From Candidatus Sungiibacteriota bacterium (GTDB lineage Bacteria; Patescibacteriota; Minisyncoccia; Sungbacterales; HO2-52-23): a stretch of 64,000 bases of DNA. Of the stretch, positions 2,843-64,000 are shown one piece after another. Made by a program: the position numbers and the translations under genes. A model generated the notes under the pieces. That model had not been told where the DNA came from and did no database searches. It saw nothing but the letters and a program-made list of their open reading frames with translations. Location: the NCBI GenBank assembly GCA_016180435.1, contig JACPBG010000003.1, forward strand, positions 13,791-77,790. Direction: 5' to 3'. The first letter of the stretch is position 1. Each line of letters starts with the position of its first letter.

Positions 2843-4585
2843 TTGGTTCGTAGAATTCTCTGGCGAAATGAAAAAACGCTCTATAAGCGGAGTTGTGACG
2901 TTCCGGGACATACGGAGCAATTACTTTCTACGTATTCGGCTGAAAAGCCGTTTAACGTTTATGACCAAAAGTATTGGTGGTCAGATGTATGGGATCCTCT
3001 GCAATTCGGGAGGAAATATGATTTTACACAGCCATTTTTTGAACAATTCCGGCAACTCATTCGGGCGGTTCCGCATCCTATACTTTTGACCGAGTATACT
3101 ACCTGTATAAATAGCGATTATTCCAATTGGGCCGGGGAGCTTAAAAATTGTTATTTAATCTCCGATGCGGATGTGGTGCAGGATTCCGCATACGGATCAG
3201 GAGTGTTTAACTGTAAAGATTGTTTTGATAACGGGAATATCTCGGAATCCGAACTATCGGCGCATAATTTCAATGTGCGTAAGTGCTACCGTACTGTTTT
3301 TTCGGTAGATTGTTCGTCATGTACGGAGGTATGGCTATCTAAAAATTGTATCGGATGCACAAATTGCTTTGGTTGCGTTAATTTAAGAAATAAATCTTAC
3401 CACATTTTTAATGTCCCCTACGATAGAGATAACTATTTTAAAAAATTGGAAGAATTCCGGCTCGGATCATTTGAAAATTTTGAAAAACTGCGGTTTGAAG
3501 CGGAGAAATTTTGGAATGCGCAGCCACAGAAATATATGCGAGGATTTTCTAATACGCGAACCTCGGGTGATTATATCTATCACTCCAAAAATGTTCAGCA
3601 CGGTTTTTTAATTACCGGCGTGGAAGATAGTAAATTTGTAGTTCTTACTCATGTTCCTTCTACGAAAGATTGCTATGACTATACGGATTGGGGATATGGA
3701 GCGGAGCGGCTATATGAATGTATGACGGTGGGGCTAAAGGCGAGTGATATAAAATTTAGTCACATTGTTTTCAGAAATGTGATGGATGTACAATACAGTT
3801 TTTGGTGCGGATCCGGATCATCAAACCTTTTTGGCTGCATCGGCCTCCGCTCCAAATCCTACTGCATCCTAAACAAGCAATACACCAAAGAAGAATACGA
3901 AACACTCGTCCCCAAGATCATTAAACACATGAACTCCATGCCTTATATAGATAAGAAAGGAAGAGTATATAAATATGGTGAATTCTTCCCTCCAGAGCTC
4001 TCTCCCTTCGCATATAACGAAACCATAGCCCAGGAATACTTTCCTTTAACCAAGGAACAAGCCATAGAGCAGGGATATGCCTGGAAAGACCCCGAGGAAC
4101 GAAATTACAAAATCCAAATTCCAAATGATAAACTACCGGATCACATTAAAGACGTTCCCGACGATATCGTGGGGCAGGTGATAGAGTGCGGCCATGCCAT
4201 ACAAGAATCAAGAAGCATGAATCATGAATCAAGAGTAATCTGTAACGAACAATGTACCGAAGCCTTTAAGATCATCAAACCCGAACTGGAGTTCTACCGT
4301 AAAATGAACCTGCCCCTGCCCCGTTTATGCCCCAATTGCCGGCATTACCAGAGAATCAAGCAAAGAAACCCCCTCCGCCTCTGGCACCGCCAATGCATGT
4401 GCCAAGGCGCAAAATCCCAAATCTCAAATTCCAAATCCCAAACAAATTCCAATTTCCAATATAAAAACACTGCCGCTCATTCCCACGGACCAAGTCCCTG
4501 CCCCAATGAGTTTGAGACATCTTACGCTCCGGAGAGACCGGAGATAGTTTATTGCGAGGCCTGTTACAATACGGAGATTATTTAG
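2843..4585 (+). CDS. Cysteine-rich repeat protein with zinc-ribbon motifs (C..C..RNKSY-type repeats, C-terminal CxxC...LPLPRLCPNCR ribbon). The N-terminus appears disrupted (frameshift or deletion near 2796-2806).
   Basis: The long ORF has repeated units (CSSCTEVWLSKNCIGCTNCFGCVNLRNKSYHIFN and CGSGSSNLFGCIGLRSKSYCILN) and a C-terminal ribbon ELEFYRKMNLPLPRLCPNCR. An ATG at 2766 encodes MTRQCQNCKQ in another frame, and VPPPTWCPECR continues in the 2843 frame. The ORF in the 2843 frame has no ATG and uses a TTG start. Confidence 0.55.
   Translation: MVRRILWRNEKTLYKRSCDVPGHTEQLLSTYSAEKPFNVYDQKYWWSDVWDPLQFGRKYDFTQPFFEQFRQLIRAVPHPILLTEYTTCINSDYSNWAGELKNCYLISDADVVQDSAYGSGVFNCKDCFDNGNISESELSAHNFNVRKCYRTVFSVDCSSCTEVWLSKNCIGCTNCFGCVNLRNKSYHIFNVPYDRDNYFKKLEEFRLGSFENFEKLRFEAEKFWNAQPQKYMRGFSNTRTSGDYIYHSKNVQHGFLITGVEDSKFVVLTHVPSTKDCYDYTDWGYGAERLYECMTVGLKASDIKFSHIVFRNVMDVQYSFWCGSGSSNLFGCIGLRSKSYCILNKQYTKEEYETLVPKIIKHMNSMPYIDKKGRVYKYGEFFPPELSPFAYNETIAQEYFPLTKEQAIEQGYAWKDPEERNYKIQIPNDKLPDHIKDVPDDIVGQVIECGHAIQESRSMNHESRVICNEQCTEAFKIIKPELEFYRKMNLPLPRLCPNCRHYQRIKQRNPLRLWHRQCMCQGAKSQISNSKSQTNSNFQYKNTAAHSHGPSPCPNEFETSYAPERPEIVYCEACYNTEII
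4411..4460. repeat. In-frame TCCCAAA/TTCCAAA repeat run in the Cys-rich protein gene (KSQISNSKSQTNSNFQYKN)
   Basis: aaaatcccaaatctcaaattccaaatcccaaacaaattccaatttccaat. Confidence 0.75.
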
Positions 4586-12965: not shown

Positions 12966-13427
12966 TTAGATTTTTTTATTGAGGCGGGCCCTGATTCTGA
13001 GAAGATCGATATCGTTGTCTATGCGGCGTAAGAAGAGTTTGTTGTCTCTAATTTCGGTCGGGTATCGTGCTTCGTCGGGGAAGAGAATGATGATTGCTAT
13101 GCTATTTTCTGAGATCTTTTTGAGTGTCGCATGCAGATAGGAATCGCTAACGAGAATATCCAGCTGTTCCCGACAATCTTCGGGCTGGATTTTATCGGAG
13201 CAACTGAATTGACCCGTTTCCAGCAGTGCTTTACGATTCCTGTCTATTTTTATGGATTGAACCCCCTTTTCTTTTACTTCCCGAATAATCCTATTTGCTG
13301 CGATTTCTGGCGACGAGGTTGATTGCGAATGCCGTGAAACGATATCTATTGGAAAGAGTGCTCCTAGAAAGAAAGATAGAATAAATATTCCGGCAAAGGC
13401 GAGATAGCACCTGGTATGATTGTTCAT
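12966..13427 (-). CDS. Membrane-anchored hypothetical protein
   Basis: Start chosen at MNNHTRCYLAF because GAGGAG sits 4 nt upstream (reverse complement of 13428-13445). An N-terminal TM segment is present. Confidence 0.45.
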   Translation of the reverse strand: MNNHTRCYLAFAGIFILSFFLGALFPIDIVSRHSQSTSSPEIAANRIIREVKEKGVQSIKIDRNRKALLETGQFSCSDKIQPEDCREQLDILVSDSYLHATLKKISENSIAIIILFPDEARYPTEIRDNKLFLRRIDNDIDLLRIRARLNKKI

Positions 13428-13460
13428 AAAACTCCTCAATTTGAAGGAACGATAAGATAT

Positions 13461-14972
13461 ATGTATCATAAAGCTATTATGCCGTCAAGCGAAAAGGAAA
13501 CTTTCTATATAACCACCACCCTGCCTTATGTAAATGCGGATCCGCATATCGGGTTTGCTTTGGAAATTATTCAGGCCGATGTGATCGCGCGGTATAAGCG
13601 TCAGCAGGGGTATGATGTAATATTTAATACAGGCACGGATGAGCACGGGTTAAAAATTTATCGCAGGGCGCTTGAAGAAAAAAAAGATCCGCAAAAATAC
13701 GTGGACGAACTTGCTCCGCGATTTGAACGCCTGAAATCCGCGCTTAATTTAAGTTACACCCATTTTATCCGCACCACCGATCCGCATCACAAGCTCGCGG
13801 CACAGGAATTTTGGAAACGGTGCCGGGCCGCGGGTGATATATATAAAGCGGCGTATCATACCAAATATTGCGTGGGATGCGAGCTTGAAAAGACCGACTC
13901 CGAACTTGAAGATGATCGCTGTCCCGTCCATCCCAATCTGCAAGTTGAGATAATTGAAGAAGAGAATTATTTTTTCAGATTTTCCAAATATGAAAAACCG
14001 CTTCTCGGATTCTTCGCAGAGAATTCAAAATTCGTACTTCCGGAACACCGTTTTAACGAGGTTAAAAATTTTGTGGCTTCGGGTCTGCGTGATTTCAGTA
14101 TTTCGCGCCGATCCGAGAAAATGCCATGGGGCGTTTCGGTCCCGGATGATCCGGAGCATGTTATGTATGTCTGGTTTGATGCTCTGGTAAATTACATTTC
14201 CACCCTGGGCTGGCCGGAAGATAGGGTAAATTTTAGCGCATACTGGCCGGGCATGCAGGTTGCGGGAAAAGACAATTTGAGGCAGCAGGCCGCTATGTGG
14301 CAGGCTATGCTTTTGTCTGCGGGGATTCCCAATTCAAAACAGATTTTTATCCACGGATTCATTACGGTAGACGGAGAGAAGATGTCAAAGTCCCGCGGAA
14401 ATGTAATTGATCCGGCGGAGCTTGTTCAAAAATATAGCACAGATTCAGTTCGATATTATCTGCTGCGTGAAATTCCGTCCGGCGAGGACGGGGACTTTTC
14501 ATATAAAAAATTTGAAGATAGATACAACGGGGATTTAGCCAATGGACTGGGGAACCTGGTCGCAAGAGTTGTAACGCTTGCGACCAAAGTCAAAAGTCCC
14601 GCCAGGGGCGAGGCTCGCTTGAGGCGGCAAAAACCAAAAGCCAAAACCGAAGTTCAAAATATAAAATTAATCCCTGAACTGAAAAATGTAAAAGAAAATT
14701 ATGAAAAGGCGATGGAGGAGGTACGGCTGATTGAGGCGCTGGAAGAAGTATGGAAATTAATTCATATAGCGGATAAATATGTGAATGAAGAAAAACCATG
14801 GGAAAATAAAAAGCCGGAAGTGATTTCCGATCTTTTGTTTCTGATTCTTGAAATCGCGTCTTTGCTTAACCCGTTTTTGCCCGAAACCGTGGAAAAAATA
14901 AGGGAACAGATAAAAATTGCCGACGGTCAATTTGAGATAAAAAAAAGCGAAAATTTGTTTCCACGGCTATGA
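13461..14972 (+). CDS. metG: Methionyl-tRNA synthetase
   Basis: PYVNADPHIGFALE (HIGH-type), KMSKSRGNVIDP, and an anticodon-binding helical domain. The alternative start at 13479 is equally plausible. Contains the in-frame 35-bp palindromic element at 14598-14633. Confidence 0.88.
   Translation: MYHKAIMPSSEKETFYITTTLPYVNADPHIGFALEIIQADVIARYKRQQGYDVIFNTGTDEHGLKIYRRALEEKKDPQKYVDELAPRFERLKSALNLSYTHFIRTTDPHHKLAAQEFWKRCRAAGDIYKAAYHTKYCVGCELEKTDSELEDDRCPVHPNLQVEIIEEENYFFRFSKYEKPLLGFFAENSKFVLPEHRFNEVKNFVASGLRDFSISRRSEKMPWGVSVPDDPEHVMYVWFDALVNYISTLGWPEDRVNFSAYWPGMQVAGKDNLRQQAAMWQAMLLSAGIPNSKQIFIHGFITVDGEKMSKSRGNVIDPAELVQKYSTDSVRYYLLREIPSGEDGDFSYKKFEDRYNGDLANGLGNLVARVVTLATKVKSPARGEARLRRQKPKAKTEVQNIKLIPELKNVKENYEKAMEEVRLIEALEEVWKLIHIADKYVNEEKPWENKKPEVISDLLFLILEIASLLNPFLPETVEKIREQIKIADGQFEIKKSENLFPRL
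14598..14633. repeat. GGCGAGGCTCGC-centred palindromic element (cccgccaggggcgaggctcgcttgaggcggcaaaa) in-frame in metG (SPARGEARLRRQK)
   Basis: Near-identical to 18065-18098 in leuS. Related copies lie at 49555-49600 (topA) and 63625-63659 (pth). Confidence 0.85.
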
Positions 14973-15577: not shown

Positions 15578-16459
15578 ATGTCAACTCTAAAGTTATTTGA
15601 TGTCCATACTCATACTCAATTTGCCGCATTTAAGGATGAAATCGATGTGGTGATTAAACGCGCGCTGGACGCCGGGATCTGGTTGGTAAATGTGGGAACC
15701 CAGCGCGATACTTCGGCCAAGGCAGTTGAAATAGCGAATAAATATTCGGAGGGAGTATATGCAACAGTCGGGCTTCATCCTATTCATACGGAAAAGTCAT
15801 TCCACGACGAAAAAGAATTGGGTGCGTTAGTGTTCTCTAATTCGCGCGAATTAGAGAATAAGAACTTGCCTGGATTTTTAAGTCGAGCAGAAGAATTTGA
15901 TTATGAGTATTACAAAAAATTAGCCGAAGATCCGAAAGTTGTTGCGATCGGGGAGTGCGGGCTGGACTATTATAGAACTAAGAATTTAGAACTTAGAACT
16001 AAGCAGTTTGATACTTTTAAAAAACAGATTGAGTTGGCGGTTGAATTAAAAAAACCATTGATGATTCATTGCCGTAACGCCTTTGAAGATTTGATCGACA
16101 TTCTACAAACTACAAACTATAAACTAAAATCCGGTATAATACATTTTTTCTCCGGTACCGTAGAAGATGCGCGAAAACTTTTGGATCTCGGATTTTCATT
16201 TTCTTTCGGTGGTGTTATAACGTTTACCCGAGATTACGATGAAGTCGTGAAATATATGCCACTGGAGCGAATCTTGCTGGAGACCGATGCGCCATATGTG
16301 GCACCGGTTCCATATCGCGGGAAACGCAATGAACCATTGTATGTTGTGGAAGTAGCAAAAAAAATAGCGGAGCTTAAAGCCGTTGCGCCAGGCGATATAG
16401 AAAGAATTACAACCGAAAACGCCTTGAAAATATTCGGAATAAAAAATGACCGCGATTAG
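15578..16459 (+). CDS. tatD: TatD-family metal-dependent deoxyribonuclease/hydrolase
   Basis: LFDVHTHTQF (HxH), a conserved E, and an HF.S..GG motif. Contains in-frame GAACTTAGAA and CTACAAACTA repeat insertions (15974-16003, 16108-16135). Confidence 0.8.
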   Translation: MSTLKLFDVHTHTQFAAFKDEIDVVIKRALDAGIWLVNVGTQRDTSAKAVEIANKYSEGVYATVGLHPIHTEKSFHDEKELGALVFSNSRELENKNLPGFLSRAEEFDYEYYKKLAEDPKVVAIGECGLDYYRTKNLELRTKQFDTFKKQIELAVELKKPLMIHCRNAFEDLIDILQTTNYKLKSGIIHFFSGTVEDARKLLDLGFSFSFGGVITFTRDYDEVVKYMPLERILLETDAPYVAPVPYRGKRNEPLYVVEVAKKIAELKAVAPGDIERITTENALKIFGIKNDRD

Positions 16460-17497: not shown

Positions 17498-20400
17498 ATG
17501 CGCTATTTTCCCCACAAAATAGAAAAAAAGTGGCAAAAAATTTGGCTGAAAATGGAAATCTATGAACCCGACATCAAGAAAACCAAAAAGCCGTTTTATA
17601 ATTTAATGATGTTTCCGTATCCTTCCGCCGAAGGACTGCATGTTGGGAATATGTACGCGTTTACCGGCGCGGATATTTATGGTCGTTTTATGCGGATGCG
17701 GGGGCGTGATGTTTTTGAGCCGATCGGCCTTGATGGTTTCGGGATCCATTCGGAAAATTTTGCCATGAAAATTGGGAGGCACCCGGCGGATCAGGCCAAA
17801 ATTTCGGAGAAAAATTTTTACCGTCAGCTTGAGGCGCTTGGAAACGGGTTTGCTTGGTGTGAACGGCTTGAAACATATAACCCCGAATATTATAAATGGA
17901 CCCAATGGATTTTTGTGCAAATGTTTAAACGCGGCCTTGCCTATCGCAAAAAGCAGGCAGTGAATTGGTGTCCCAACTGCAAAACAGTGCTTGCGGATGA
18001 GCAGGTCATACAGAAATCCGAAATCCGAAATCCGAAATCCGAAACAAATTCGAAATTCGAAATTCCCGCCGGAGGCGAGGCTCGCTCGGGGCGGCAAAAT
18101 TCAAAACAAAAAATCACGATTGGCGTATGCGAACGATGCGATACGCCGGTGATTAAAAAAGAACTGGAGCAATGGTTTTTCAAAATAACGGATTATGCCG
18201 AGCGGCTTCTCGGAAATCTTGCAAAACTTGATTGGTCGGAGCGCGTCAAAATCGCGCAAAAAAACTGGATCGGGAAATCCGAGGGCGCTTTAATCAAATT
18301 TCCAATTTCCAATTTCCAATTTCCAATTAAGGATCTTGATTTTGTATTTATCCATGGATATAAAGGCGATTCACGGGATATTTTTTGGCCATGGTTTAGA
18401 AAAGAAATCGAACGTAGAGGCGCTAAGGTCTTTGCCCCCGACTTGCCCAATTCAGATGCGCCTAATATAAATGAACAGGTTCAATATGTTTTAAAGCAAC
18501 ATTCATTTAGCGAAAAGACCGTTATTGTGACTCACTCTTTGGGGGGCGTGGTTGCTATGAAATTATTGCCTTTATTGCACGATAAAATAGAACGGCTTTT
18601 GCTGGTGGCACCGCCTCTTCGGACGGAATTTCTGGATGGAAAAAAACGCCCGGCTTTAGAGGACGCTTGTGATTGGAAATTCAATTTTAATGAAATTAAA
18701 AAACACGCGAGGAATATTAGTGTTTTAGCAGATACGGAAGATCATGTTGTGTCCTTGGATCAACTCGTAGAAATTGCCGGACAGCTTAATGCCAGATTAC
18801 GGAAAACTGTGGCGAGTGCCCCGCATTTTAGAGAAATTGTAGAGCCGGAAATCGTAAACGAATTGTTTCCGGAAATTGAGATTTTTACCACGCGGCCGGA
18901 CACGCTTTTTGGAGCAACGTACCTCGTACTCTCGCCAGAGTACGAGGAAATTTCCAATTTCCAATTTCCAATTTCCAATCGCGGGGAAGTTGACGAATAT
19001 ATTAAAAATACGAAAGCTAAAACCGAGGAGGAAAGAATTTCCGAAGGCAGAGAAAAAACCGGAGTTGAATTAAAAGGAATAAAAGTTATAAATCCGGTAA
19101 ACGGCGAGGAAATCCCGGTGTGGGTTGCGGATTATGTTTTGGGCGGAGTGGGGATGGGCGCTATTATGGCGGTTCCGGCGCATGATGAGCGCGATTTTGA
19201 GTTCGCGAAAAAACACGATTTGCCGATTAAGACAGTCGTCGAATCATTCTACATTCAAAAAGAGGAACCGGGCGTATATAGAGAAAATGAATCAATCGTA
19301 CCGCGGGACGGGATAATTACAATTATCAAGCATTGGTCTGAAGATAAATATATTGGTCTTAAATGGAAAAAGGTTGCCTGGGGAACATTTCTTACGGGTG
19401 GCATAGAGAAAGGGCAAACCGCGGAACAGGCCGGAGTTGCTGAAATTTTGGAAGAAACAGGATATCTTCACCCCAAGTTTATTCGAGAACTTGGCATAAC
19501 GCACGGGCTTTTTTATCACGTTCCCAAAAAAGAGAATCGTCTTGTGCATGCACATATTCTCTATTTTGAATTGCAGGATGGGGCCCGGACCGAGATATCC
19601 GAAAAAGAGCAAGAGATTCATGATATAAAATGGTTGACTCTAAAAGAGCTTAAATCTTTCCTTACCCCCGCTACTCATACTTATGCCCTTGATTTATTTA
19701 GGGAGGGAATAAAAGTATATACGGGCGGGGGAATTCTTTGTAATTCCGGAGAATTCAACGGTATGGATTCAGAAAAGGCCAAATTGGAAATTACGAAATT
19801 CGTCTGCGGAGAGCGTAAAATTCAGTATCGCTTGCGGGATTGGTTGATTTCGCGACAAAGGTATTGGGGACCTCCAATTCCAATGATTTTTTGCGAGAGC
19901 TGCAAAAAATCACTGGAAAATTCCAAATTCTCGAAAGGAGAATTAGAAAATCCCGGATGGACAGCGGTGCCGGAAAAGGATTTGCCGGTAAAATTGCCGT
20001 ATGTGAAAAATTTCCGGCCGACCGGTACGGACAAATCACCCCTTGCCACTGTTAAAAAATTTTACAAAGTTCGCTGTCCCAAATGTAAATCTTGGGCTCG
20101 TAGGGAAACCGATGTTTCGGACACTTTCCTGGATTCGGCATGGTATTATTTACGCTATCCGAGCGTAAAAATGCAAAATTCAAAAATCAAAATGCAAAAT
20201 GAAAATTCAAAATCTAAAAATATAGAAATTCCTTGGAATTCGGAAATTACTAAAAAATGGACACCGGTGAACATGTACATAGGCGGAGCAGAACATTCTG
20301 TGCTTCATCTTCTTTACTCTCGTTTTTTAGCAATGGCGTTTAAGGATTGGGGATTGACGCATTTTGAAGAACCATTCACAAAATTTCGCGCGCATGGGCT

Positions 20401-21121
20401 TTTGATAAAAGACGGAACGAAGATGTCAAAGTCCAGGGGGAATGTGGTCAATCCGGATGAGTATATTAGAGCGTATGGCGCGGATGCTCTGCGTATGTAT
20501 TTGATGTTTTTGGGGCCGTTTGAGCAGGGCGGGGATTTTCGGGATGACGGGATCAGGGGAATAACACGGTTTTTGGAGAGAGCATACAAACTAATTTCCA
20601 ATTTCCAAAATCCAATTTCCAAACAAATTCCAAATTCAAAATCACAAATTCAAAAAATATTACACCAGACAATTAAGAAAGTAACGGAAGATATTGAGAA
20701 CCTGCAATACAATACGGCGATTTCGGCTTTAATGATACTTTTGAATAAGTTTGAAGAAAATCCGTCCGCAGTTACTAAAGAACACGTTTCAATATTTTTG
20801 CGATTGTTGGCTCCGGTTGCGCCCTTCATAACGGAGGAATTGTGGAGTATGTTTCCTACAAACTACAAACTACAAGCTACAAGCGTACATAAAAATAAGT
20901 GGCCGGAATATGACCCGAAATTGATTCAAGAAGACACGTTTGAGCTGGTGGTCCAGATAAACGGCAAAGTGCGGGACAAATTTGAGGCTCCGATTGATGT
21001 CTCTGAAGATAATGCAACCCGTTTGACTTTGGGGCGGGAGAGGGTTAAGAGTATAGTTGGAACCTTAAAACCGCGTAGGATTATTTTTGTCCCGAAGCGG
21101 TTGATAAATATCGTGATTTAG
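17498..21121 (+). CDS. leuS: Leucyl-tRNA synthetase carrying two extra inserted domains in one continuous ORF: an alpha/beta serine hydrolase (about 18329-18830) and a Nudix-like domain (about 19290-19720)
   Basis: LeuRS motifs: PYPSAEGLHVGN (HIGH-type), TTRPDTLFGATYLV, AVPAHDERDFEFA (editing Asp), NSGEFNGMD, YRLRDWLISRQRYWGPPIP and KMSKSRGNVVNP. The insert FIHGYKGD...THSLGG (GxSxG) resembles a YdeN/RBBP9-type hydrolase. The insert GGIEKGQTAEQAGVAEILEETGY is a Nudix-box-like sequence in which E is replaced by Q and R by A. At least six in-frame repeat insertions are present. Confidence 0.9.
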   Translation: MRYFPHKIEKKWQKIWLKMEIYEPDIKKTKKPFYNLMMFPYPSAEGLHVGNMYAFTGADIYGRFMRMRGRDVFEPIGLDGFGIHSENFAMKIGRHPADQAKISEKNFYRQLEALGNGFAWCERLETYNPEYYKWTQWIFVQMFKRGLAYRKKQAVNWCPNCKTVLADEQVIQKSEIRNPKSETNSKFEIPAGGEARSGRQNSKQKITIGVCERCDTPVIKKELEQWFFKITDYAERLLGNLAKLDWSERVKIAQKNWIGKSEGALIKFPISNFQFPIKDLDFVFIHGYKGDSRDIFWPWFRKEIERRGAKVFAPDLPNSDAPNINEQVQYVLKQHSFSEKTVIVTHSLGGVVAMKLLPLLHDKIERLLLVAPPLRTEFLDGKKRPALEDACDWKFNFNEIKKHARNISVLADTEDHVVSLDQLVEIAGQLNARLRKTVASAPHFREIVEPEIVNELFPEIEIFTTRPDTLFGATYLVLSPEYEEISNFQFPISNRGEVDEYIKNTKAKTEEERISEGREKTGVELKGIKVINPVNGEEIPVWVADYVLGGVGMGAIMAVPAHDERDFEFAKKHDLPIKTVVESFYIQKEEPGVYRENESIVPRDGIITIIKHWSEDKYIGLKWKKVAWGTFLTGGIEKGQTAEQAGVAEILEETGYLHPKFIRELGITHGLFYHVPKKENRLVHAHILYFELQDGARTEISEKEQEIHDIKWLTLKELKSFLTPATHTYALDLFREGIKVYTGGGILCNSGEFNGMDSEKAKLEITKFVCGERKIQYRLRDWLISRQRYWGPPIPMIFCESCKKSLENSKFSKGELENPGWTAVPEKDLPVKLPYVKNFRPTGTDKSPLATVKKFYKVRCPKCKSWARRETDVSDTFLDSAWYYLRYPSVKMQNSKIKMQNENSKSKNIEIPWNSEITKKWTPVNMYIGGAEHSVLHLLYSRFLAMAFKDWGLTHFEEPFTKFRAHGLLIKDGTKMSKSRGNVVNPDEYIRAYGADALRMYLMFLGPFEQGGDFRDDGIRGITRFLERAYKLISNFQNPISKQIPNSKSQIQKILHQTIKKVTEDIENLQYNTAISALMILLNKFEENPSAVTKEHVSIFLRLLAPVAPFITEELWSMFPTNYKLQATSVHKNKWPEYDPKLIQEDTFELVVQINGKVRDKFEAPIDVSEDNATRLTLGRERVKSIVGTLKPRRIIFVPKRLINIVI
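18013..18064. repeat. In-frame GAAATCC/GAAATTC heptad repeat in leuS (IQKSEIRNPKSETNSKFEIP)
   Basis: gaaatccgaaatccgaaatccgaaatccgaaacaaattcgaaattcgaaattcc. Confidence 0.8.
18065..18098. repeat. GGCGAGGCTCGC palindromic element copy in leuS (cccgccggaggcgaggctcgctcggggcggcaaaa; AGGEARSGRQ)
   Basis: About 90% identical to the metG copy at 14598-14633. Confidence 0.85.
18297..18328. repeat. In-frame ATTTCCA repeat x4 in leuS (FPISNFQFPIKD)
   Basis: aatttccaatttccaatttccaatttccaatt. Confidence 0.8.
18949..18980. repeat. In-frame ATTTCCA repeat x4 in leuS (ISNFQFPISN), preceded by an 11-bp inverted repeat cctcgtactct/agagtacgagg (18922-18948)
   Basis: atttccaatttccaatttccaatttccaatcg. Confidence 0.8.
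20168..20222. repeat. In-frame AAAATGCAAAAT/TTCAAAA repeat in leuS (KMQNSKIKMQNENSKSKN)
   Basis: aaaatgcaaaattcaaaaatcaaaatgcaaaatgaaaattcaaaatctaaaaa. Confidence 0.75.
20594..20655. repeat. In-frame TTTCCAA/ATTCAAA repeat in leuS (ISNFQNPISKQIPNSKSQIQKI)
   Basis: atttccaatttccaaaatccaatttccaaacaaattccaaattcaaaatcacaaattcaaaaa. Confidence 0.8.
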
Positions 21122-21785: not shown

Positions 21786-21990
21786 TATGGGCGGTTGAGG
21801 ATGTTTGATTTTAGACAATGGGAGGATTAGTTTGTTAGGTTCTCCGCCGCAGGCGGATTCAATAAGAAAATTCTCCAAGCGAGTCACAGGCGGAATTTAG
21901 CATTTTGCTTTTAAGGCAATGGGAGGATAAGTTTGCATGGTTTCTGCCGCAGGCGGATACAATACGAAAACCCATAAACGAGCTAATCAT
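21786..21990. repeat. Family-B structured repeat (two tandem units containing ttttagacaatgggagg ... ccgccgcaggcgg ... gagtcacag)
   Basis: Shares the motifs gggcggttgaggatgtttgattttagacaatgggagg with 41380-41420 and 47375-47395. Confidence 0.7.
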
Positions 21991-22135
21991 TCTTTATTCA
22001 ATTAACGCAGGGCTGGCGAATAAATGGTGAGAAAATGTGACAAGGGAAGCCGGCTCTGCCGGAGGGTTTCCGTCACATTTTCGGCTCCATTTATCCAGAC
22101 CGAAGTTTTGAATAAAAATGATTGGCGAGTGAAAA

Positions 22136-37351: not shown

Positions 37352-38722
37352 ATGGCAATGCAATATAAAAACGTAAAAAAATATGATAGGGAGATTTATA
37401 ATCTTATCCGTGAAGAAGAACGAAGGCAGAAAGATGGGTTGGAACTTATCCCTTCGGAAAGTTACGCATCCGCCGCTGTGCTTGAGGCCCTGGGCAGTAT
37501 TTTGAATGACAAATATGCGGAGAATTATCCGGGAAAACGCTATTACGGCGGGTGCGAGACCGTGGATAAGGTGGAACGGTTGTGCCAGGAACGCGCCTTA
37601 AAAGTTTTTCGCGCGCAAGGATACAAAGTAAATGTCCAGCCCTATTCCGGAAGTCCGGCCAATATTGAGGTGTATGCGGGATTGCTTGATTTTGGAGATA
37701 CGATCATGGCTTTGCGCTTGGATCATGGCGGCCACTTGACCCACGGTTCTCCGGTAAGTTTTTCAGGTAAGGCATACAAATTTATTCATTATGGAGTTGA
37801 TCCAAAAACTGAATGTCTTGATTATGACGAAATTGCGCGGCTCGCCCAAAAACATAAGCCCAAAATTATTCTTTCCGGATTTACCGCCTATCCGCGGCTG
37901 ATAGATTTTAAAAAAATGCACGCGATTGCAAAATCTGTCGGCGCAATTTCCATGGCGGACATTTCGCATATTTCGGGACTTATCATCGGCGGCGCTCATC
38001 CCTCGCCTTTTCCGTTCACGGATGTGGTGACAACTACTACGCATAAAACCCTGCGCGGTCCGCGCGCGGCTATGATATTTTCTCGAAAAGATAAAAGTAT
38101 AAAGATAAAAGATAAAAACGTCTTGATTTCTGAAGCTATTGATAAGGCAGTTTTCCCCGGCATGCAGGGCGGGCCGCATGAGCACACGATCGCGGCAATT
38201 GCCGTGGCTTTGCACGAGGCAAAAAAACCGGAATTCAGAAAATTTGCGGAGCAGGTGGTTAAAAATGCCAAAGTACTTGCCATAGCCATCCAAAAAGAAG
38301 GACTCCGTTTAATTTCGGGGGGAACCGATAATCATCTGATGTTAATTGATTTACGGCCGTTTGGCCCGGGTAGGGGAAAATTTATTGAAAAAGCATTGGA
38401 GGCAGTACGTATTAGTGTAAACAAAAGTCCTATTCCCAATGACCCTTCGCCGCCGTTTTATCCGTCCGGAGTCCGTCTGGGCACCCCGGCGATAACCAGC
38501 CGCGGCATGAAAGAAAAAGAAATGCGTGTTATTGCGGGATTTATCGCGCGTGTGGTGCGGGAATTTTCGCACGTCATACTGCCGGAGGAAAAATCCGAGC
38601 GCGCCACGGCGGTACGTGAATTTACCCAGAAACTTTCTCGCAGCCAATTTGTCAAAAAAATAGGTAGTGAGGTTAAACAGTTCGCATCAAGATTTCCGGT
38701 CCCGGGGATTGACACGAAATAA
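37352..38722 (+). CDS. glyA: Serine hydroxymethyltransferase
   Basis: SHMT motifs (LIPSENY-type N-terminus, PLP-Lys region TTTTHKTLRGPR). Has an in-frame AAAGATAAAAG repeat at 38086-38116 (KDKSIKIKDKN). Confidence 0.95.
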   Translation: MAMQYKNVKKYDREIYNLIREEERRQKDGLELIPSESYASAAVLEALGSILNDKYAENYPGKRYYGGCETVDKVERLCQERALKVFRAQGYKVNVQPYSGSPANIEVYAGLLDFGDTIMALRLDHGGHLTHGSPVSFSGKAYKFIHYGVDPKTECLDYDEIARLAQKHKPKIILSGFTAYPRLIDFKKMHAIAKSVGAISMADISHISGLIIGGAHPSPFPFTDVVTTTTHKTLRGPRAAMIFSRKDKSIKIKDKNVLISEAIDKAVFPGMQGGPHEHTIAAIAVALHEAKKPEFRKFAEQVVKNAKVLAIAIQKEGLRLISGGTDNHLMLIDLRPFGPGRGKFIEKALEAVRISVNKSPIPNDPSPPFYPSGVRLGTPAITSRGMKEKEMRVIAGFIARVVREFSHVILPEEKSERATAVREFTQKLSRSQFVKKIGSEVKQFASRFPVPGIDTK

Positions 38723-41164: not shown

Positions 41165-41401
41165 AATATAAAGGAAGCCCTCGCGCTTCCTATTTTATTT
41201 GATTTTATGCAAATTTTATGCTATTTAAAGGTAGTGTAATGTATCAGGCGTGAAGCGCTACACTAAGAAAATTTTAAGTGAGTCAAAACGGTTGAGGCGT
41301 TTTGTTTTCGAAGCGATGGGGGGCGTTAAATCATGTTTTCCGCCTTAGGCGGACACAATAAGAAAATATCTAAGCGGAGTCATGGGCGGTTGAGGATGTT
41401 T

Positions 41402-41509
41402 GATTTTAGACAATGGGAGGTCCGATTTGCTTGGTTCCGCCGAAGGCGGAAAATCGGACTGACCTTTAGTGAGGCGGCCGCTGGGAGCCGCCGAATCGTG
41501 TCTAAAATC
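41402..41509. repeat. Family-B structured element, compact copy (closing stem gattttagaca/tgtctaaaatc with nested stems), 33 nt upstream of folD
   Basis: An 11-bp closing helix; nested helices gtccgattt/aaatcggac, ccgcc/ggcgg and gcggcc...gccgcc. The homologue at 47375-47614 has compensatory changes (ggcggc/gccgcc versus ggccgc/gcggcc). Confidence 0.7.
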
Positions 41510-44024: not shown

Positions 44025-44801
44025 ATGGCCAGAATCATCACATTATGTAATCAAAAAGGCGGGGTGGGGAAATCAACATCGGCTCAAAACCTTTCGGTTT
44101 TTTTGGCGGCACTTGGAAAAAAAGTGCTATTGGTTGATTTTGATCCGCAAGCCAATACCACGTCTGGCCTTGGTTTTAACCCGCGCAAAATAGAAAAAAG
44201 CATTTATCATGCGCTTATCGGGAAAATTACCGCTAGCGACGCCGTAAAAAAAAGCGGGATTCTGGCTGTTGATATTTTGCCGGCATCTCCTGCGCTTGCC
44301 GGCGCGTCGGTGGAACTTGTTGACATGCGCAGCCGAGAGTATAAACTAAAAGAAATCCTTGAGCCGTTGCGCCGGAAATACGACTTTATTATAATTGATT
44401 CTCCGCCGAGTTTAGGGCTTCTTACCATAAACGCGCTTACCGCATCGCAAAAGGTGGTTATCCCGGTGCAGTGCGAATATTACGCCCTGGAGGGCCTTGC
44501 TGATCTGCTCCGTACTATACAGCTTGTTAATTCCAATTTGAAAACCCGTACCGCTATTTTAGGAGCGCTTCTCACCATGTATGACCGGAAATCGCGTTTG
44601 CATCGCGCAGTAGCCAAAGAAATCCGGCGTAAATTCCCGGGATACGTGTTTGAGGCCGTGATTCCGCGAAACATAAGTTTGGCCGAAGCCCCGTCATTTG
44701 GTAAAACAATTTTGCAATATGATCCGTATTCGCACGGAGCCAAAGCGTATAGGCAATTGGCGGAAGAGATATTGAGGTTGGAGGGAATAAGAAAAATATG
44801 A
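44025..44801 (+). CDS. parA: ParA/Soj chromosome-partitioning ATPase
   Basis: Deviant Walker A KGGVGKST; 258 aa; adjacent to parB. Confidence 0.9.
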   Translation: MARIITLCNQKGGVGKSTSAQNLSVFLAALGKKVLLVDFDPQANTTSGLGFNPRKIEKSIYHALIGKITASDAVKKSGILAVDILPASPALAGASVELVDMRSREYKLKEILEPLRRKYDFIIIDSPPSLGLLTINALTASQKVVIPVQCEYYALEGLADLLRTIQLVNSNLKTRTAILGALLTMYDRKSRLHRAVAKEIRRKFPGYVFEAVIPRNISLAEAPSFGKTILQYDPYSHGAKAYRQLAEEILRLEGIRKI

Positions 44802-44993
44802 TGCCAATCTACAAATCTTATGCCAATTTGGCGAATTGCGAATCGTTACTATTTGAGCTTGCTTGCCTCGCTGTAGCGAGAGCGAAGCGGGTCGATAATA
44901 TACATTTAAGGCATCTTCTCGATTTCACTTAAAGAATAAGTATTTGCAATTTGTAGATTAGCATTAAATTCGCATCGGATTGGCATCACATTT

Positions 44994-46028
44994 ATGGAGT
45001 CATTAGGAAGAGGTCTTGAATCCTTAATTCCCGATAGGGGGCCGGAAGAAATTCCGGCGGATTTGGGCGCGGAAAATAGTGAGGATAAAATTACTCCGGA
45101 ATCCGAACACAATTTAACTGCCAGGGCGGGAACGCCCGCATCTCCTCTGGCATCGCTCGGCGCGTCACAGCGCGCTACTTTTCATGATAATTTCCAGCCC
45201 AAAAAAACCGATTCGGTTTTTTGGATTGAAATAGATAAGATTGAATCCAACCCTTATCAGCCGCGCCGCGAATTTAACGAGGGCGCGTTGAAGGATCTCG
45301 CCATGTCCATACGCGAGCATGGATTATTGCAGCCGATTTTGGTTTCCAAGCAAGAGATCGAGACCCAAACCGGACTGGATGTCAGGTATCAATTGATTGC
45401 TGGAGAAAGAAGGTGGCGCGCGGCGACGCTTGCCGGACTTTCGCAAATTCCGGCTGTGATCAGGCGCGGCGTGCCGGATAATCGCCTGAAATTGGAATTG
45501 GCTTTGATTGAAAATGTTCAGCGTGAGGACTTAAATCCCATGGAGCGCGCGCGGGCCTTCAAGCAATTAGTTGATGAGTTCCATCTGATGCAAAAAGAAA
45601 TTGCCGAGCGTATTGGCAAATCGCGCGAAACCGTGGCCAACACTTTAAGGCTTTTAACCCTTCCTGCAGACATCCAGCAAGGGTTGCATGAGGGGCGTAT
45701 TACCGAGGGACATGCGCGCGCGGTTTTAATTGCCGGGGATGATCAAACCAAACAATTTGAAGTATATAATGCGATCTTAATGGATCGTTTGAATGTGCGC
45801 GAGGCGGAAAATCGCGCACGGCATGTGTCCGGCAAAGCGTTTACCCCGCGCAAGCGCCCTTCGGCAGTGCAGGACCCGGAACTTCGCCGTTGGCAGAATG
45901 AATTGCAGGAGCGTTTGGGAACCAAAGTGCGTTTGGAAAAATTGGGCGACCGCGGAAAAATTATTGTTGAGTTCTATTCCGACGAAGAGCTTCAAGGGCT
46001 GTTGGGCAAATTAATACACGAAACATAA
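44994..46028 (+). CDS. parB: ParB/Spo0J partition protein
   Basis: ParB box IEIDKIESNPYQPRREF, GLLQPILV, HTH region, and C-terminal dimerisation segment. Has an N-terminal low-complexity extension. Confidence 0.9.
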   Translation: MESLGRGLESLIPDRGPEEIPADLGAENSEDKITPESEHNLTARAGTPASPLASLGASQRATFHDNFQPKKTDSVFWIEIDKIESNPYQPRREFNEGALKDLAMSIREHGLLQPILVSKQEIETQTGLDVRYQLIAGERRWRAATLAGLSQIPAVIRRGVPDNRLKLELALIENVQREDLNPMERARAFKQLVDEFHLMQKEIAERIGKSRETVANTLRLLTLPADIQQGLHEGRITEGHARAVLIAGDDQTKQFEVYNAILMDRLNVREAENRARHVSGKAFTPRKRPSAVQDPELRRWQNELQERLGTKVRLEKLGDRGKIIVEFYSDEELQGLLGKLIHET

Positions 46029-47248: not shown

Positions 47249-47374
47249 CAGTTCGGTCCTCGGGCCGATTTTTTATAGTTTAAATAATAGCCAGGCTCAA
47301 AGCCCTACCTGTCGGTAGGTAGGGCTACCATAAGCAAACCTTTTAAGCGAGCGTTGCGGCCGAAGGTATTTTCT

Positions 47375-47614
47375 ATTTTAGACAATGGGAGGATAAAATT
47401 GCTTGCCCCGCACCAAATTTTGACTGCCGCTTTCGTTTCCATCCAAGCAAATATGAACATCTGTTAAGAAATACAGAATATGTCCCGCCAGCTTATTCGA
47501 GGTGGCACGGAAACGGTCAAAATTTTGATGACGGGGCTTGGCTTGTGCGAAGCGCAAAAATTTGTCCGACCCTTAGCGAGGCCGCCGCAGGAGCGGCCGA
47601 GACGTGTCTAAAAT
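47375..47614. repeat. Family-B structured element, long copy, downstream of relA
   Basis: attttagaca...tgtctaaaat closing stem; shares the gaggcCgccgc...gcggCcga stem (compensated relative to the 41-kb copy) and the gagtcacag motif. Confidence 0.65.
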
Positions 47615-47644: not shown

Positions 47645-49375
47645 TCACAGTAATTTATAACTTACATCCTCAATCCCTTTTATCCCCTTTAATCTCACCA
47701 TCATTTTTTCCACCTCGGTTTTATTTTTAAATCCCTCGGCATGTATTAGAAGCGCCGCCCATTTTTGATTTTTGGTGTCGGTATCCACTTTTTTTATATT
47801 TATTTTGTGTTTGGCCAGCATGTGGGTTACGTCGCGTAACAGTCCCACCCGGTCGCGGATCGTCAGGTTGAATTCCACTGTTTCTCCGCCGCGTTTTTCG
47901 AATTTTTTATCCCCCTCGGAATGTTTAAGAAAAGAACTTATTTTTTTACGCGCCTGCGCGCTTTTTACTATTTTCAGCCAATCGCGGCTCGGTTTTTTGT
48001 TTTTCTGTTTTAAGATTTCCACAATGTCCCCGTTTTTCAGGATATGATCCAAGGCAACCATTTTTCCGTTGATTTTGGCGCCGACTGCGGTGTTTCCAAT
48101 ATCGGAATGCACATGATACGCAAAATCAATGGGCGTAGATCCTTCCGGCAGATCAAAGGCATCGCCTTTGGGAGTCAGGACAAAAATCCTATCTTTGAAA
48201 AAATCGATTTTTAGCGCCTCCAAAAATTCCTCCGGTTTTTCAAATTCCTTTTGCCATTCGCGTAGCTGCTCAATCCAGGCAAAGTGCCGCGCATTTATTT
48301 TGGAGGAGCGCCCTTCGGCATACGCCTGGGTGTCGCGGCGTTTCATTTCCGAATATGCCCAATGCGCGGCAATTCCGAATTCCGCTTCTCCATGCATTTC
48401 TGGCGTTCGTATCTGAATTTCTATCGGACGCTCTTCATGGCCGATTACGGTGGTATGAAGCGAGCGATAGCCGTTGGGCTTGGGAAGCGCAATATAATCT
48501 TTGATGCGCCCGGGTAGGGGTTTCCAGAGTTTATGTATTACGCCAAGCGTCGCGTAGCAATCTTCAATTGTAGGCACAATGATGCGCAGCGCCACTATAT
48601 CCGTGATTTTTCTTACATCCATGCCATAACGCAGAAGTTTTTTGTAGAGCGAATAATAATGCTTGGCGCGCGCATTTATTCCGGTGAAAGGAATTCTTTC
48701 TTTCACAAGCTCCTCGGTAAGCACCGGTTTTATCCGCTCGACATATTTTCGCCAATCCTCATAGGTTTCTTTGGCCTCTTTCATAAGCCATTCGTATTCC
48801 GAAGAATACACATGGGGGAAAGACAGATCCTCCAATTTTCCCGAAAGATCCGCCATGCCGAGGCGATAAGCCAGGGGCGCGTAAATTTCCAGGGTTTCCA
48901 ACGCAATCCGTTTTTGTTTTTCCGGCGGCAGATGAGAAAGAGTTTGCATATTATGGAAACGGTCCACGAGTTTCAGTAAAACCACGCGAATATCTTCGCC
49001 GATTGCCAGAAACATTTTACGCAAGCTCTCGGCCGAGCGTTCGGTGCCGCGGTATCTTATTTTATCCAGTTTGGTGACTCCTTGAACCAGAAACGCAATT
49101 TCGTCTCCGAATTCTTTGCGTATGTCTTTAATCGAGTGGTACGTATCTTCGCATACGTCGTGCAGGAGCGCGGCGGCAATGGTGGAGGAGTCAAGATGCA
49201 TGTCAACGAGTTCAGATGCGGTTGCCAGGGGATGGGATATATATGGGTCGCCGGATTTCCGTTTTTGTTCTCCATGGGCTTTGGCGGCAAAATCGTAGGC
49301 GCGTTTAATCAACATCAGGTCCTCTGCGGAGCGCGCCTGCGCTTTTATTTTTTCGAAAAGATTTTGCGCGGTCAT
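47645..49375 (-). CDS. relA: Bifunctional (p)ppGpp synthetase/hydrolase RelA/SpoT
   Basis: HD domain (HD...DVCED), synthetase domain (RIKDYIALPKPNGYRSLHTTV), TGS and ACT domains. Start placed at MTAQNLFEKIKA; the longer ORF from 49669 would run into topA. Confidence 0.9.
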   Translation of the reverse strand: MTAQNLFEKIKAQARSAEDLMLIKRAYDFAAKAHGEQKRKSGDPYISHPLATASELVDMHLDSSTIAAALLHDVCEDTYHSIKDIRKEFGDEIAFLVQGVTKLDKIRYRGTERSAESLRKMFLAIGEDIRVVLLKLVDRFHNMQTLSHLPPEKQKRIALETLEIYAPLAYRLGMADLSGKLEDLSFPHVYSSEYEWLMKEAKETYEDWRKYVERIKPVLTEELVKERIPFTGINARAKHYYSLYKKLLRYGMDVRKITDIVALRIIVPTIEDCYATLGVIHKLWKPLPGRIKDYIALPKPNGYRSLHTTVIGHEERPIEIQIRTPEMHGEAEFGIAAHWAYSEMKRRDTQAYAEGRSSKINARHFAWIEQLREWQKEFEKPEEFLEALKIDFFKDRIFVLTPKGDAFDLPEGSTPIDFAYHVHSDIGNTAVGAKINGKMVALDHILKNGDIVEILKQKNKKPSRDWLKIVKSAQARKKISSFLKHSEGDKKFEKRGGETVEFNLTIRDRVGLLRDVTHMLAKHKINIKKVDTDTKNQKWAALLIHAEGFKNKTEVEKMMVRLKGIKGIEDVSYKLL

Positions 49376-49425
49376 GTGTATTTTTAATAAATCCTGGCGT
49401 TTTTTCAATACAAATCCGCGTATTT

Positions 49426-63463: not shown

Positions 63464-64000
63464 TCAGGTGTTTTTGTTGATTATTCCCACTGCTTTTTCC
63501 TGTTCTCCGGTTGCGAATGCCCCGACGCCCTCAAAGATTTTCTTTTCGAGTTTGCGGATTTGTTTTTGTTCATCCGGTTTAAGTTTCTGCAACACAAGCT
63601 TTTCCGCCTCTACGCGTTTTTTGCGCCCGCCTTTGGCGAGGCTCGCCCCAAAGGGCGGCTGGATTCCGACACGAAGCCGCCAAAAATCCCAACTTCCTAA
63701 AGCGCGTTTTATCGATTCCACCCCTTTATGGCCTGCTGAATGCTTATGGAATGAAAGTTTGGCGCGGCCAAGCAAAATATCGGCGTCATCATGAAGCACT
63801 ATCGTATCACGCGGTTTTACTTTATAAAATCGGGCTACGGGACCCGCGGCATTTCCGGATTTATTCATAAAGGTATCGGGCAGGAGTAGTGTGGCTTTTA
63901 TTTTTTCGATTCTGCCTTCGGAAATAAGCGCGTTCCATTTTTTTTCAAATTTAAATTCTGGAAAGCCGAATTTATTTCCGATGGATTGTGCGGTTTCGCG
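63464..64000 (-). CDS. pth: Peptidyl-tRNA hydrolase (5' end beyond window)
   Basis: Reverse-strand translation continues past the annotated Met to the window edge (…IGNKFGFPEFKFEKKWNALISEGRIEKIKATLLLPDTFMNKSG…HKHSAGHKGVESI). Contains an in-frame GGCGAGGCTCGCC element at 63625-63659. Confidence 0.85.
   Translation of the reverse strand, partial: RETAQSIGNKFGFPEFKFEKKWNALISEGRIEKIKATLLLPDTFMNKSGNAAGPVARFYKVKPRDTIVLHDDADILLGRAKLSFHKHSAGHKGVESIKRALGSWDFWRLRVGIQPPFGASLAKGGRKKRVEAEKLVLQKLKPDEQKQIRKLEKKIFEGVGAFATGEQEKAVGIINKNT
63625..63659. repeat. GGCGAGGCTCGCC palindromic element copy in-frame in pth (PFGASLAKGG on the minus strand)
   Basis: cccgcctttggcgaggctcgccccaaagggcggct. Confidence 0.8.

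Follow-up and report, generated by a model that had tools for sequence, protein, structure and literature searches.

Palindromic repeats that lie in frame within unrelated housekeeping genes, where the extra peptide is tolerated by the fold, are known as Rickettsia palindromic elements (RPEs) (PMC10969869, PMC3733652). They are ~100–150 bp long, and each family encodes a conserved peptide (PMC10969869). Repetitive extragenic palindromic (REP) sequences and REPINs are imperfect palindromes of 20–40 nt that are non-autonomous, present in many copies, and occasionally intragenic, with conserved stems and variable loops (PMC3733652, PMC3116915). A conserved GTAG or CGTC tetranucleotide marks one end of REPs (PMC3733652). 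Here we describe a palindromic DNA element, usually 30–33 nt in length, that is found in frame in the essential genes metG, leuS, topA, and pth within a 64,000-nt stretch (hereafter the window) of contig JACPBG010000003.1, which belongs to a metagenome-assembled genome (MAG) of Candidatus Sungbacteria (Patescibacteria).

Like the RPEs, the element inserts in frame into functional open reading frames (ORFs). However, the RPEs are confined to Rickettsia, whereas the core of the present element spans many phyla and is associated with heptamers. The inserts measure 30 nt in leuS, 33 nt in pth, and ~46 nt in topA. In addition, the present element is read in six frames as six peptides (50 coding copies), in contrast to one conserved peptide per RPE family. 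The parallel with RPEs drawn in the first-pass annotation therefore holds for the effect, an in-frame palindrome in essential genes, but not for membership, with 30–33 nt and six frames against ~150 bp and a conserved peptide. The RPEs are set apart by these features, as compared by description.

The element resembles REPs in being an imperfect palindrome of 20–40 nt in many copies. However, it ends in C-CCGCC and GGCGG-C, and its flank logo contains no GTAG or CGTC. REPs are mainly extragenic, whereas the element is intragenic in all five window copies and in 50 of 77 genome copies (here and below, figures from the genome scan cover the matches listed). Its copies are single units rather than inverted doublets, and its core is shared across phyla, whereas REPs are species-specific. 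Miniature inverted-repeat transposable elements derived from DDE transposons measure 70–300 bp and have a target duplication, in contrast to 30–33 nt and no duplication beyond one ambiguous C.

The nearest description is probably that of the small dispersed repeats (SDRs) of Nostoc punctiforme by Elhai et al. in 2008. SDRs are reportedly mobile repeats of 21–27 nt, some of them hairpin-capable, located within tandem heptameric repeats and conserved genes, and are said to have been reported from a few cyanobacteria. The present element is also heptamer-associated, and no cyanobacterial label is found among the 68 genome loci listed. The core GCGAGGCTCGC appears in no paper in a relevant context in our literature search, and the literature on heptamer repeats, on palindromes of the candidate phyla radiation (CPR), and on RPEs provided background only. 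The element family is apparently undescribed so far.

Window copies, consensus, and distribution

The core GCGAGGCTCGC occurs exactly four times in the window, starting at 14608, 18075, 49572, and 63636, in a search that was also run with one mismatch allowed. In dinucleotide-preserving shuffles of the window the mean expectation is 0.01 cores, and none of 100 shuffles contains four or more, so the count far exceeds what composition predicts; the first-pass annotation had named a count within expectation as a refutation. All four cores are framed by CCGCC...GGCGG arms. The host genes identified by Pfam are those of MetRS (13416–14972, + strand), LeuRS (17498–21121, +), TopA (49426–51537, −), and Pth (63464 to beyond 64000, −), and all four reading frames run unbroken through their copy. 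For MetRS and Pth, database entries of 100% identity carry the name Candidatus Sungbacteria. The earlier proposal of a palindromic DNA element, not a protein motif, placed in frame in metG, leuS, topA, and pth is thus borne out.

The canonical 31-nt copy in metG (14598–14628, +) reads C CCGCC AGG GGCG AGGCT CGCT TGA GGCGG C, folds as a hairpin, and is translated as PARGEARLRR. It is flanked by degenerate heptamers (14586–14649, +), arranged as caaagtc aaaagtc, element, aaaaacc aaaagcc aaaaccg. The leuS copy, also canonical with 31 nt (18065–18095, +), reads C CCGCC GGA GGCG AGGCT CGCT CGG GGCGG C, with the peptide PAGGEARSGR. It is part of a composite insert of ~36–38 codons in the first zinc-binding (ZN1) loop of LeuRS (18014–18127, +), made up of (GAAATCC)4 (GAAATTC)2, the hairpin element, and A-rich degenerate heptamers. 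The extended topA copy of ~46 nt (49555–49600, +) is located in the second zinc ribbon and reads EPPIKDGRASPAPAGGG on the minus strand; the stems of both half-hairpins are longer, and two hairpins are present in the fold. The 33-nt pth copy (63626–63658, +) reads CCCGCC TTT GGCGAGGCTCGCC CCAAAG GGCGG, and its minus-strand reading is PPFGASLAKGG. A fifth, decayed or variant copy in the anticodon-binding domain of IleRS (1620–1643, +), which reads CCGCC CCCGCTAAGGCTTC GGCGG, folds weakly, and has AAAAATC heptamers on both sides, is tentatively assigned to the family.

The window copies modify two details of the first-pass annotation. Of the architecture CCCGCC-N5-core-N5-GGGCGG, the arms are confirmed, but the spacer is 4 nt in metG and leuS, and the metG copy ends in aGGCGG, not GGGCGG. 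Each copy had also been said to use a different frame or strand. This is true of topA and pth, but the metG and leuS copies share both strand and frame (PARGEARLRRQ and PAGGEARSGRQ), giving three frames among four copies.

The family consensus is 5'-C CCGCC NNN GGCG AGGCT CGCC NNN GGCGG C-3'. It is GC-rich and strictly oriented, and its usual length of 30–33 nt is exceeded in the extended topA copy. We scanned one genome per species with the pattern CCGCC-N3-8-GCGAGGCTCGC-N3-8-GGCGG. Loci of >60% GC look like chance matches, and the analysis used the 68 listed loci of <60% GC. At the positions that the pattern leaves free, these loci have C-1 in 46/46, G8 in 45/46, C20 in 42/46, and C+29 in 46/46, while the six loop positions vary freely. 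In a second scan, of metagenomes, the four half-stems were fixed and the 5-nt linker was left free. In contigs of <60% GC the linker is AGGCT in 74 and AGACT in 4 of 81 cases and never the reverse-complement form AGCCT, indicating that the element is strictly oriented; in high-GC contigs the linkers are random.

Genomes and metagenomes together yield ~140 copies with labels of more than eight phyla, and 142 non-redundant copies were classified. By the depositors' labels, the 68 listed genome loci comprise 33 from Patescibacteria or other CPR, 14 from Planctomycetota including Brocadiaceae, five from uncultured Gammaproteobacteria, four each from Omnitrophota and Ignavibacteriota, two from Bacteroidota, one each from Elusimicrobia, Chlamydiales, Deltaproteobacteria, and Syntrophaceae, and two unclassified. 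Several MAGs are each represented by three or four separate contigs. The element also occurs beyond the window genome, and its core is nearly invariant across many labelled phyla.

At the sensitivity used, IMG/VR viral contigs contain no canonical copies, and PLSDB plasmids and INPHARED phages give chance-level matches only; a phage or plasmid carrier was rejected on these results. Rfam at gathering thresholds finds only a tRNA in the whole window, and with permissive settings nothing relevant is found for the leuS element or for the region upstream of glmS. An intrinsic terminator was rejected, as the copies lie inside ORFs and have no T-run.

The central G of all four window cores is on the + strand, an orientation shared by four of four canonical copies that is not significant on its own. 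In the window, GC skew is positive throughout the 64 kb except for one 2-kb bin near zero, and parA and parB are present at 44025–46028. Together these suggest one replichore near the origin. A tie between element orientation and replication was rejected: local GC skew is matched in just 43 of 77 genome copies, and orientation tracks the gene strand only.

In some MAGs, the 31-nt core forms the apex of a longer palindrome, for example gtcgcct-core-gggcgac or tccgcct-core-tggcgga. In others, it lies inside a conserved frame, GGATnCCnGC-core-GCnGGnATGACAA. Loci of these longer or framed forms are L001, L008, L031, and L101, and L024, L084, L153, and L207. Their arrangement suggests that lineage-specific larger elements may have been built round the same core.

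Structure, reading frames, and insertion sites

The fold of the consensus is a single hairpin containing a 3x3 internal loop (−16.7 kcal/mol and z = −2.9 as RNA; −10.8 and z = −3.3 as DNA). The longer copies, those of pth and topA, form two hairpins in tandem. In 28 of the 33 loops enlarged to 5–7 nt, the first base is complementary to the last, as C..G in 24 of them. This compensating closure indicates that the two halves, each CGCC(C)-loop-(G)GGCG, lengthen as separate hairpins, and supports a double-hairpin form besides the long hairpin or cruciform. Because the stem positions are invariant, neither stems nor linker show classical covariation, and the compensated loop extension is the only structural evidence.

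A copy was scored as coding if its ORF has at least 200 codons and no competing frame exceeds half the length of that ORF. The coding genome copies use all six frames, with 8, 15, and 9 copies in the sense frames and 4, 11, and 3 in the antisense frames. The peptides read from them are PPxARLAxGG, PAxGEARxxRQ, SRQxRGSPxAA, PPxASLAxGG, AAxGEPRxxRE, and SRxxRASPxAG. Because six frames give six different peptides, the element is a DNA-level element and not a protein motif. The host proteins are diverse and include class I aminoacyl-tRNA synthetases, CysRS, UvrD helicases, kinases, ribonucleotide reductase, RNase PH, and another Pth. For either orientation of the core, the loops are purine-rich on the coding strand, which suggests filtering or drift after insertion at the peptide or mRNA level.

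None of the six frames of the element contains a stop codon. The persistence of copies in essential genes would be explained by this property, by a length that is a multiple of three, and by survival of those copies that lie in tolerant surface loops; the translated product would be a Gly/Ala/Arg/Pro-rich loop of 10–16 residues. For Pth, the expected surface-loop location is borne out. The AlphaFold model of the full protein has a mean pLDDT of 91.7, and its only low-confidence stretch (residues 142–148) coincides with the insert (residues 137–147), which is modelled as coil between the strand 129–136 and the helix 154–157. Because the element is stop-free in six frames, it can also inflate ORF predictions. 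The RelA/SpoT ORF at 47645–49669 (−) has an upstream extension of ~120 codons ahead of its HD domain. The ORF overlaps topA at the 3' end of that gene, and the extension passes through the topA copy in another frame.

Comparison with orthologues, which the first-pass annotation had expected to reveal an insertion with precise boundaries, does so for leuS and pth. In an alignment, LeuRS has 36–38 residues between EQVIQ and CERC, compared with two in T. thermophilus LeuRS. About 95 of 120 LeuRS homologues have the compact sequence ADEQV-I-A-GKCERC with no insert, and a dozen have at the same point a heptamer-derived insert without the hairpin (IQKSQIPNxKSxTNSKSQI..KQKITI). At the DNA level, the syntenic orthologue L125 and the orthologue L126 read ...caa att / aaa/caa..., whereas the window reads ...gaa att, then CCCGCCGGAGGCGAGGCTCGCTCGGGGCGG, then caa aat.... 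Exactly 30 nt are absent from the two orthologues, which keep the flanking heptamer insert and are without the hairpin only. This comparison shows that the leuS heptamer array is older than the hairpin within it.

Likewise, the eight closest relatives of the window Pth (66–78% identity) read GIQ/RKKR where the window protein reads GIQ-PPFGASLAKGG-RKKR, a difference of exactly 11 residues (33 nt). The closest empty site (L263) reads cggaatccag followed by agaaaaaaacgc, and the window reads cggaatccag, the 33 nt, and cgcaaaaaacgc. Filled and empty sites of leuS and pth reveal no target duplication beyond one ambiguous C. A target-site duplication suggested by the likeness of left and right flanks was rejected, since this likeness is the pre-existing heptamer periodicity. 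TopA has 15–16 extra residues between CxxC and the next strand, in the second zinc ribbon, relative to 45 homologues. MetRS has ~12 extra residues relative to relatives of 66% identity, with less exact boundaries, in a linker whose length varies among solved structures. The metG copy is carried by SRR4343430, SRR12113419, and SRR12113429, and is identical in L122–L124, contigs independently assembled from three runs. Orthologues are either exactly without the segment or carry the same palindrome; in none is the same segment encoded by divergent, non-palindromic DNA. Alignment of filled and empty sites thus shows copies apparently gained precisely at a site without target duplication.

The pth site is used recurrently. 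Among 120 Pth homologues, the element is present in seven, always at the same codon boundary and in the same orientation and frame, and each of the seven adjoins empty-site relatives in a neighbour-joining tree. Five filled copies were read at the DNA level, all of them of the less common 33-nt form. In the window copy, both the AGGCT-type centre and the end are canonical; among the other four, the centre is of the AGACT type in three and the end of the T type in all four, and the fourth, L262, has a C centre and a decayed stem. These two subtypes argue for what were probably at least two independent insertions at one site, i.e. for target specificity. In pairwise comparisons, the pth copies differ at 0–4 of 26 non-loop positions, compared with 10–23 of 63 in the surrounding essential coding DNA. 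This low divergence fits hairpin constraint, recent insertion, or homogenisation between copies. In a distant Patescibacteria Pth (L019:3949–4578, −), a canonical copy is found near the N-terminus (SRQGRGSPRAA), and the position of the window insert is occupied by a loop of equal length from unrelated, non-palindromic DNA.

Period-7 tandem repeats flank 23% of genome copies on the left, 21% on the right, and 25% across the junction, compared with 1.8% of controls, and no other period rises above background. The independent metagenome set gives 20%, 17%, and 30%, respectively, compared with 2.3% of controls. The element lies exactly between heptamer units, as in agcgttc agcgttc, element, agcgttc agcgttc; the heptamer sequence is lineage-specific and the hairpin constant. 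Among the 142 non-redundant copies, 37 are in heptamer arrays, 14 (mostly from non-CPR MAGs) are nested in longer inverted repeats, and 92 are in neither. T is the base immediately 5' of the element in 41 of 71 copies, and C follows the insert. A preference for tandem 7-bp tracts and T/C junctions is thus shown, the latter being weak.

Heptanucleotide short tandemly repeated repetitive (STRR) sequences, such as GGGAATC in Xanthomonas and TAACTGA in Beggiatoaceae, are described in passages of PMC4692102 and PMC4679880 as over-represented in many bacteria, mainly intergenic, possibly mobile, and arranged in arrays of ~4 units. In the window, by contrast, 18 of 22 tandem arrays of 7-bp units are inside ORFs and some arrays hold the hairpin element, and those passages do not mention a conserved hairpin core inside arrays. 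The window arrays include those at 776–843, 1194–1257, 1751–1784, 4102–4452, 15973–16126, 18013–18063, 18297–18328, 18949–18979, 20168–20219, 20587–20655, 20856–20882, 38086–38117, 50264–50296, and 63401–63422. The ORFs that hold arrays are those of IleRS, TatD, LeuRS, SHMT, and TopA, an unknown ORF of 580 residues, and a 741-residue ORF at 61228–63453. The arrays are translated into 7-residue peptide repeats such as NFQFPIS, KFQIPNS, PATSYQL, and LQATSYK. Some heptamers recur between loci: CTACAAA in tatD and leuS, TAGAACT in ileS and tatD, and AATTTCC three times in leuS. Perfect arrays have 4.4–4.7 units (31–33 nt), about the size of the hairpin element, and gain or loss of one unit would shift the reading frame.

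Proposed mobility and alternative explanations

We consider it likely that the family is a dispersed, non-coding, non-autonomous mobile DNA element of 30–33 nt, built as one long hairpin or two tandem mini-hairpins (CGCC-loop-GGCG). It would be moved in trans as single-stranded hairpin DNA. Our guess for the enzyme is one of the HUH type (IS200/IS605, RAYT, or IS91-like), acting by cut-and-paste or copy, since an HUH enzyme would fit an element with hairpins and a short target but no target duplication better than a DDE transposase would. HUH transposons of the IS200/IS605 type have subterminal hairpins, insert at short targets without duplication, and excise seamlessly. They measure at least several hundred base pairs or derive from an identifiable parent. 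In the present element, hairpins are present and no target duplication is seen. In contrast to those transposons, its two hairpins are the whole unit and no parent is known. Near-invariance of the non-loop positions across phyla would reflect recognition by the mobilising enzyme or by another conserved protein.

The 64-kb window contains no transposase, Y1/RAYT included, by tblastn and Pfam, and no RAYT is found near the 68 listed loci. All-against-all clustering of the ORFs of these loci gives no family present in more than four loci. From the lack of a recurrent neighbour family, the diverse hosts, and the lack of a window transposase, we infer that the element is non-autonomous. A Y1_Tnp (IS200/RAYT-like) gene is located at L121:3931–4644, 1.3 kb from a metG gene with a variant hairpin, and is flanked by palindromes of its own (gagacccggtctc) unrelated to the element. 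A Y1/RAYT link through this gene was rejected, because it has no homologue in the window and its flanking hairpins differ.

Several points weigh against a mobile element. No mobilising enzyme was found, and the mechanism is argued by analogy. Conservation of the stems is partly built in, as the search patterns demanded exact stems, and only the free positions are informative. The spread over phyla is taken solely from depositors' MAG labels. Neither polymorphism within a population nor an excision product was seen, and a gap-tolerant pattern for filled and empty leuS alleles gave no match in JGI metagenomes, where the species is probably absent. The target rule is loose, since about 65% of copies are flanked neither by heptamers nor by inverted repeats. 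Finally, a single old insertion, with many precise losses afterwards and conversion between copies, would also fit the seven Pth copies, all of the 33-nt form.

A bolder form of the mobile-element reading is conceivable, although we lean against it. It proposes a pan-bacterial class of 'nano' mobile elements, in which a ~31-nt double hairpin with 25 non-loop bases essentially fixed from Patescibacteria to Planctomycetota, Omnitrophota, Ignavibacteriota, and others would home to heptamer tracts and to specific sites in essential genes and would be moved or maintained by conserved machinery. To our knowledge, an element of ~31 nt would rank among the smallest transposable units.

The strongest alternative, which we regard as unlikely, is that the element is a selected nucleic-acid signal, such as a site bound by a conserved protein, a signal for DNA uptake or recombination, or a hairpin in the mRNA that acts on translation or stability, with mobility being secondary or the signal being recruited after insertion. 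Such a signal would account for non-loop positions that stay nearly invariant while loops drift, a pattern that includes the contrast between pth copies and their flanking coding DNA, as well as for the compensating pairs that close enlarged loops and for the purine-rich loops on the coding strand in either orientation. The gene dprA adjoins topA, and bacteria of this kind rely on the uptake of DNA. However, 4–5 copies per 64 kb are few for an uptake signal, which occurs at ~1 copy per kb, and uptake signals are lineage-specific, whereas the core of the element spans phyla. Most orthologues do without the element, its intragenic positions are scattered, its orientation to transcription is mixed (32 versus 18), and no Rfam family matches it. 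Its conservation is also explicable by recent spread or by conversion between copies.

Less probable again is spread by recombination, with ectopic gene conversion or template switching between dispersed heptamer arrays, the 7-mers serving as homology, and no dedicated enzyme. About a quarter of copies are exactly in phase inside heptamer arrays, and the same heptamers do occur at several window loci (CTACAAA, TAGAACT, and AATTTCC); conversion tracts that end inside repeats would preserve the phase automatically. This process does not account for the ~65% of copies, those of pth and topA included, that are without heptamer flanks, nor for two subfamilies at the pth site, which is without flanking homology. 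In addition, an identical core in phyla with unrelated heptamers would need transfer between genomes, which the process leaves unexplained. The signal and recombination explanations could hold alone or in combination.

It is very improbable that, with no DNA insertion, the segments arose as native protein loops, as loops selected convergently, or as ancestral remnants lost elsewhere. The peptides are all rich in Gly/Ala/Arg/Pro, the same frame (PAxGEARxxRQ) is used in metG and leuS, there is a mild excess of frame 1 (26 of 50), and the L019 Pth has a loop of equal length from unrelated DNA at the same position. However, one DNA sequence gives six unrelated peptides in six frames, orthologues have precise empty sites, it is the DNA and not the peptide that is conserved across phyla, and the palindrome is unexplained at the protein level. 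Least probable of all is chance, base composition, or an assembly artefact: high-GC genomes do yield many pattern matches with random linkers and flanks, but the free positions are invariant in DNA of <60% GC, a mere 0.01 cores are expected in the window, the metG copy recurs in assemblies from three runs, and the copies are in frame within long ORFs. A protein-level origin, chance, and an assembly artefact are excluded by the empty sites, the six frames, the enrichment of the core, and the independent assemblies.

Associated repeats, host-gene features, and implications

A second repeat family, with intergenic units of ~100 nt, is present in the window at 21800–22000, 41300–41495, and 47367–47470. 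Each unit consists of ATTTTAGACAATGGGAGG...TTTG...GGTT, a small hairpin CCGCC-NNA-GGCGGA, and CAATAAGAAAA; the hairpin equals the CCGCC/GGCGG motif of one half of the element. The units form tandem pairs upstream of glmS and folD and have no Rfam match. Other GC-rich inserts are found in the same permissive MetRS and LeuRS loops of other Patescibacteria, namely in the metG of P0047 (L121:2300–2420) and in the LeuRS homologues P0124, P0134, P0149, P0186, P0187, and P0202. For example, ctcaaaactCCCGCCttcgccaaggctacGGCGGGCaagc is translated as PAFAKATAGK, and other inserts give peptides such as LARRSPGEGG and SRGGEPRPETGRG. Several hairpin families thus seem to use the same MetRS and LeuRS sites.

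The length of LeuRS (17498–21121), 1207 residues, is due to the insertion of two whole domains, namely a Ser_hydrolase (alpha-beta hydrolase) domain at residues 283–437 and a NUDIX domain at residues 627–721. The same two-domain architecture is found in many Paceibacteria homologues, including those of Sungbacteria and Liptonbacteria. The ORF at 47–2140 starts with a His_Phos_1 domain, followed by the C-terminal half of an IleRS-like class I synthetase (tRNA-synt_1, Anticodon_1, and DUF5915). It may be a split gene or a further synthetase that carries a foreign domain.

The apparently new family of very small palindromic inserts, which spans phyla and is linked with heptanucleotide repeats, provides a second case of colonisation of essential genes by in-frame palindromes, previously best known from Rickettsia, and the present element is far smaller and more widely spread, mostly in uncultured lineages with reduced genomes. 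For annotation, such elements pose a problem, as spurious ORFs are lengthened (e.g. by the upstream extension of relA) and low-complexity peptides may mislead the alignment and annotation of MAG proteins. The 25-base core, invariant across phyla, implies a conserved recognition partner, and comparison of element presence with gene content could reveal a new mobilisation enzyme. The in-phase association with heptamers bears on the long-standing puzzle of the 7-bp repeats that are common in bacteria. Insertion of palindromes may be a general route to protein surface loops. If the 'nano' element proposal were true, such elements would be a general source of protein loop insertions in uncultured bacteria and might explain the origin of coding heptamer arrays.

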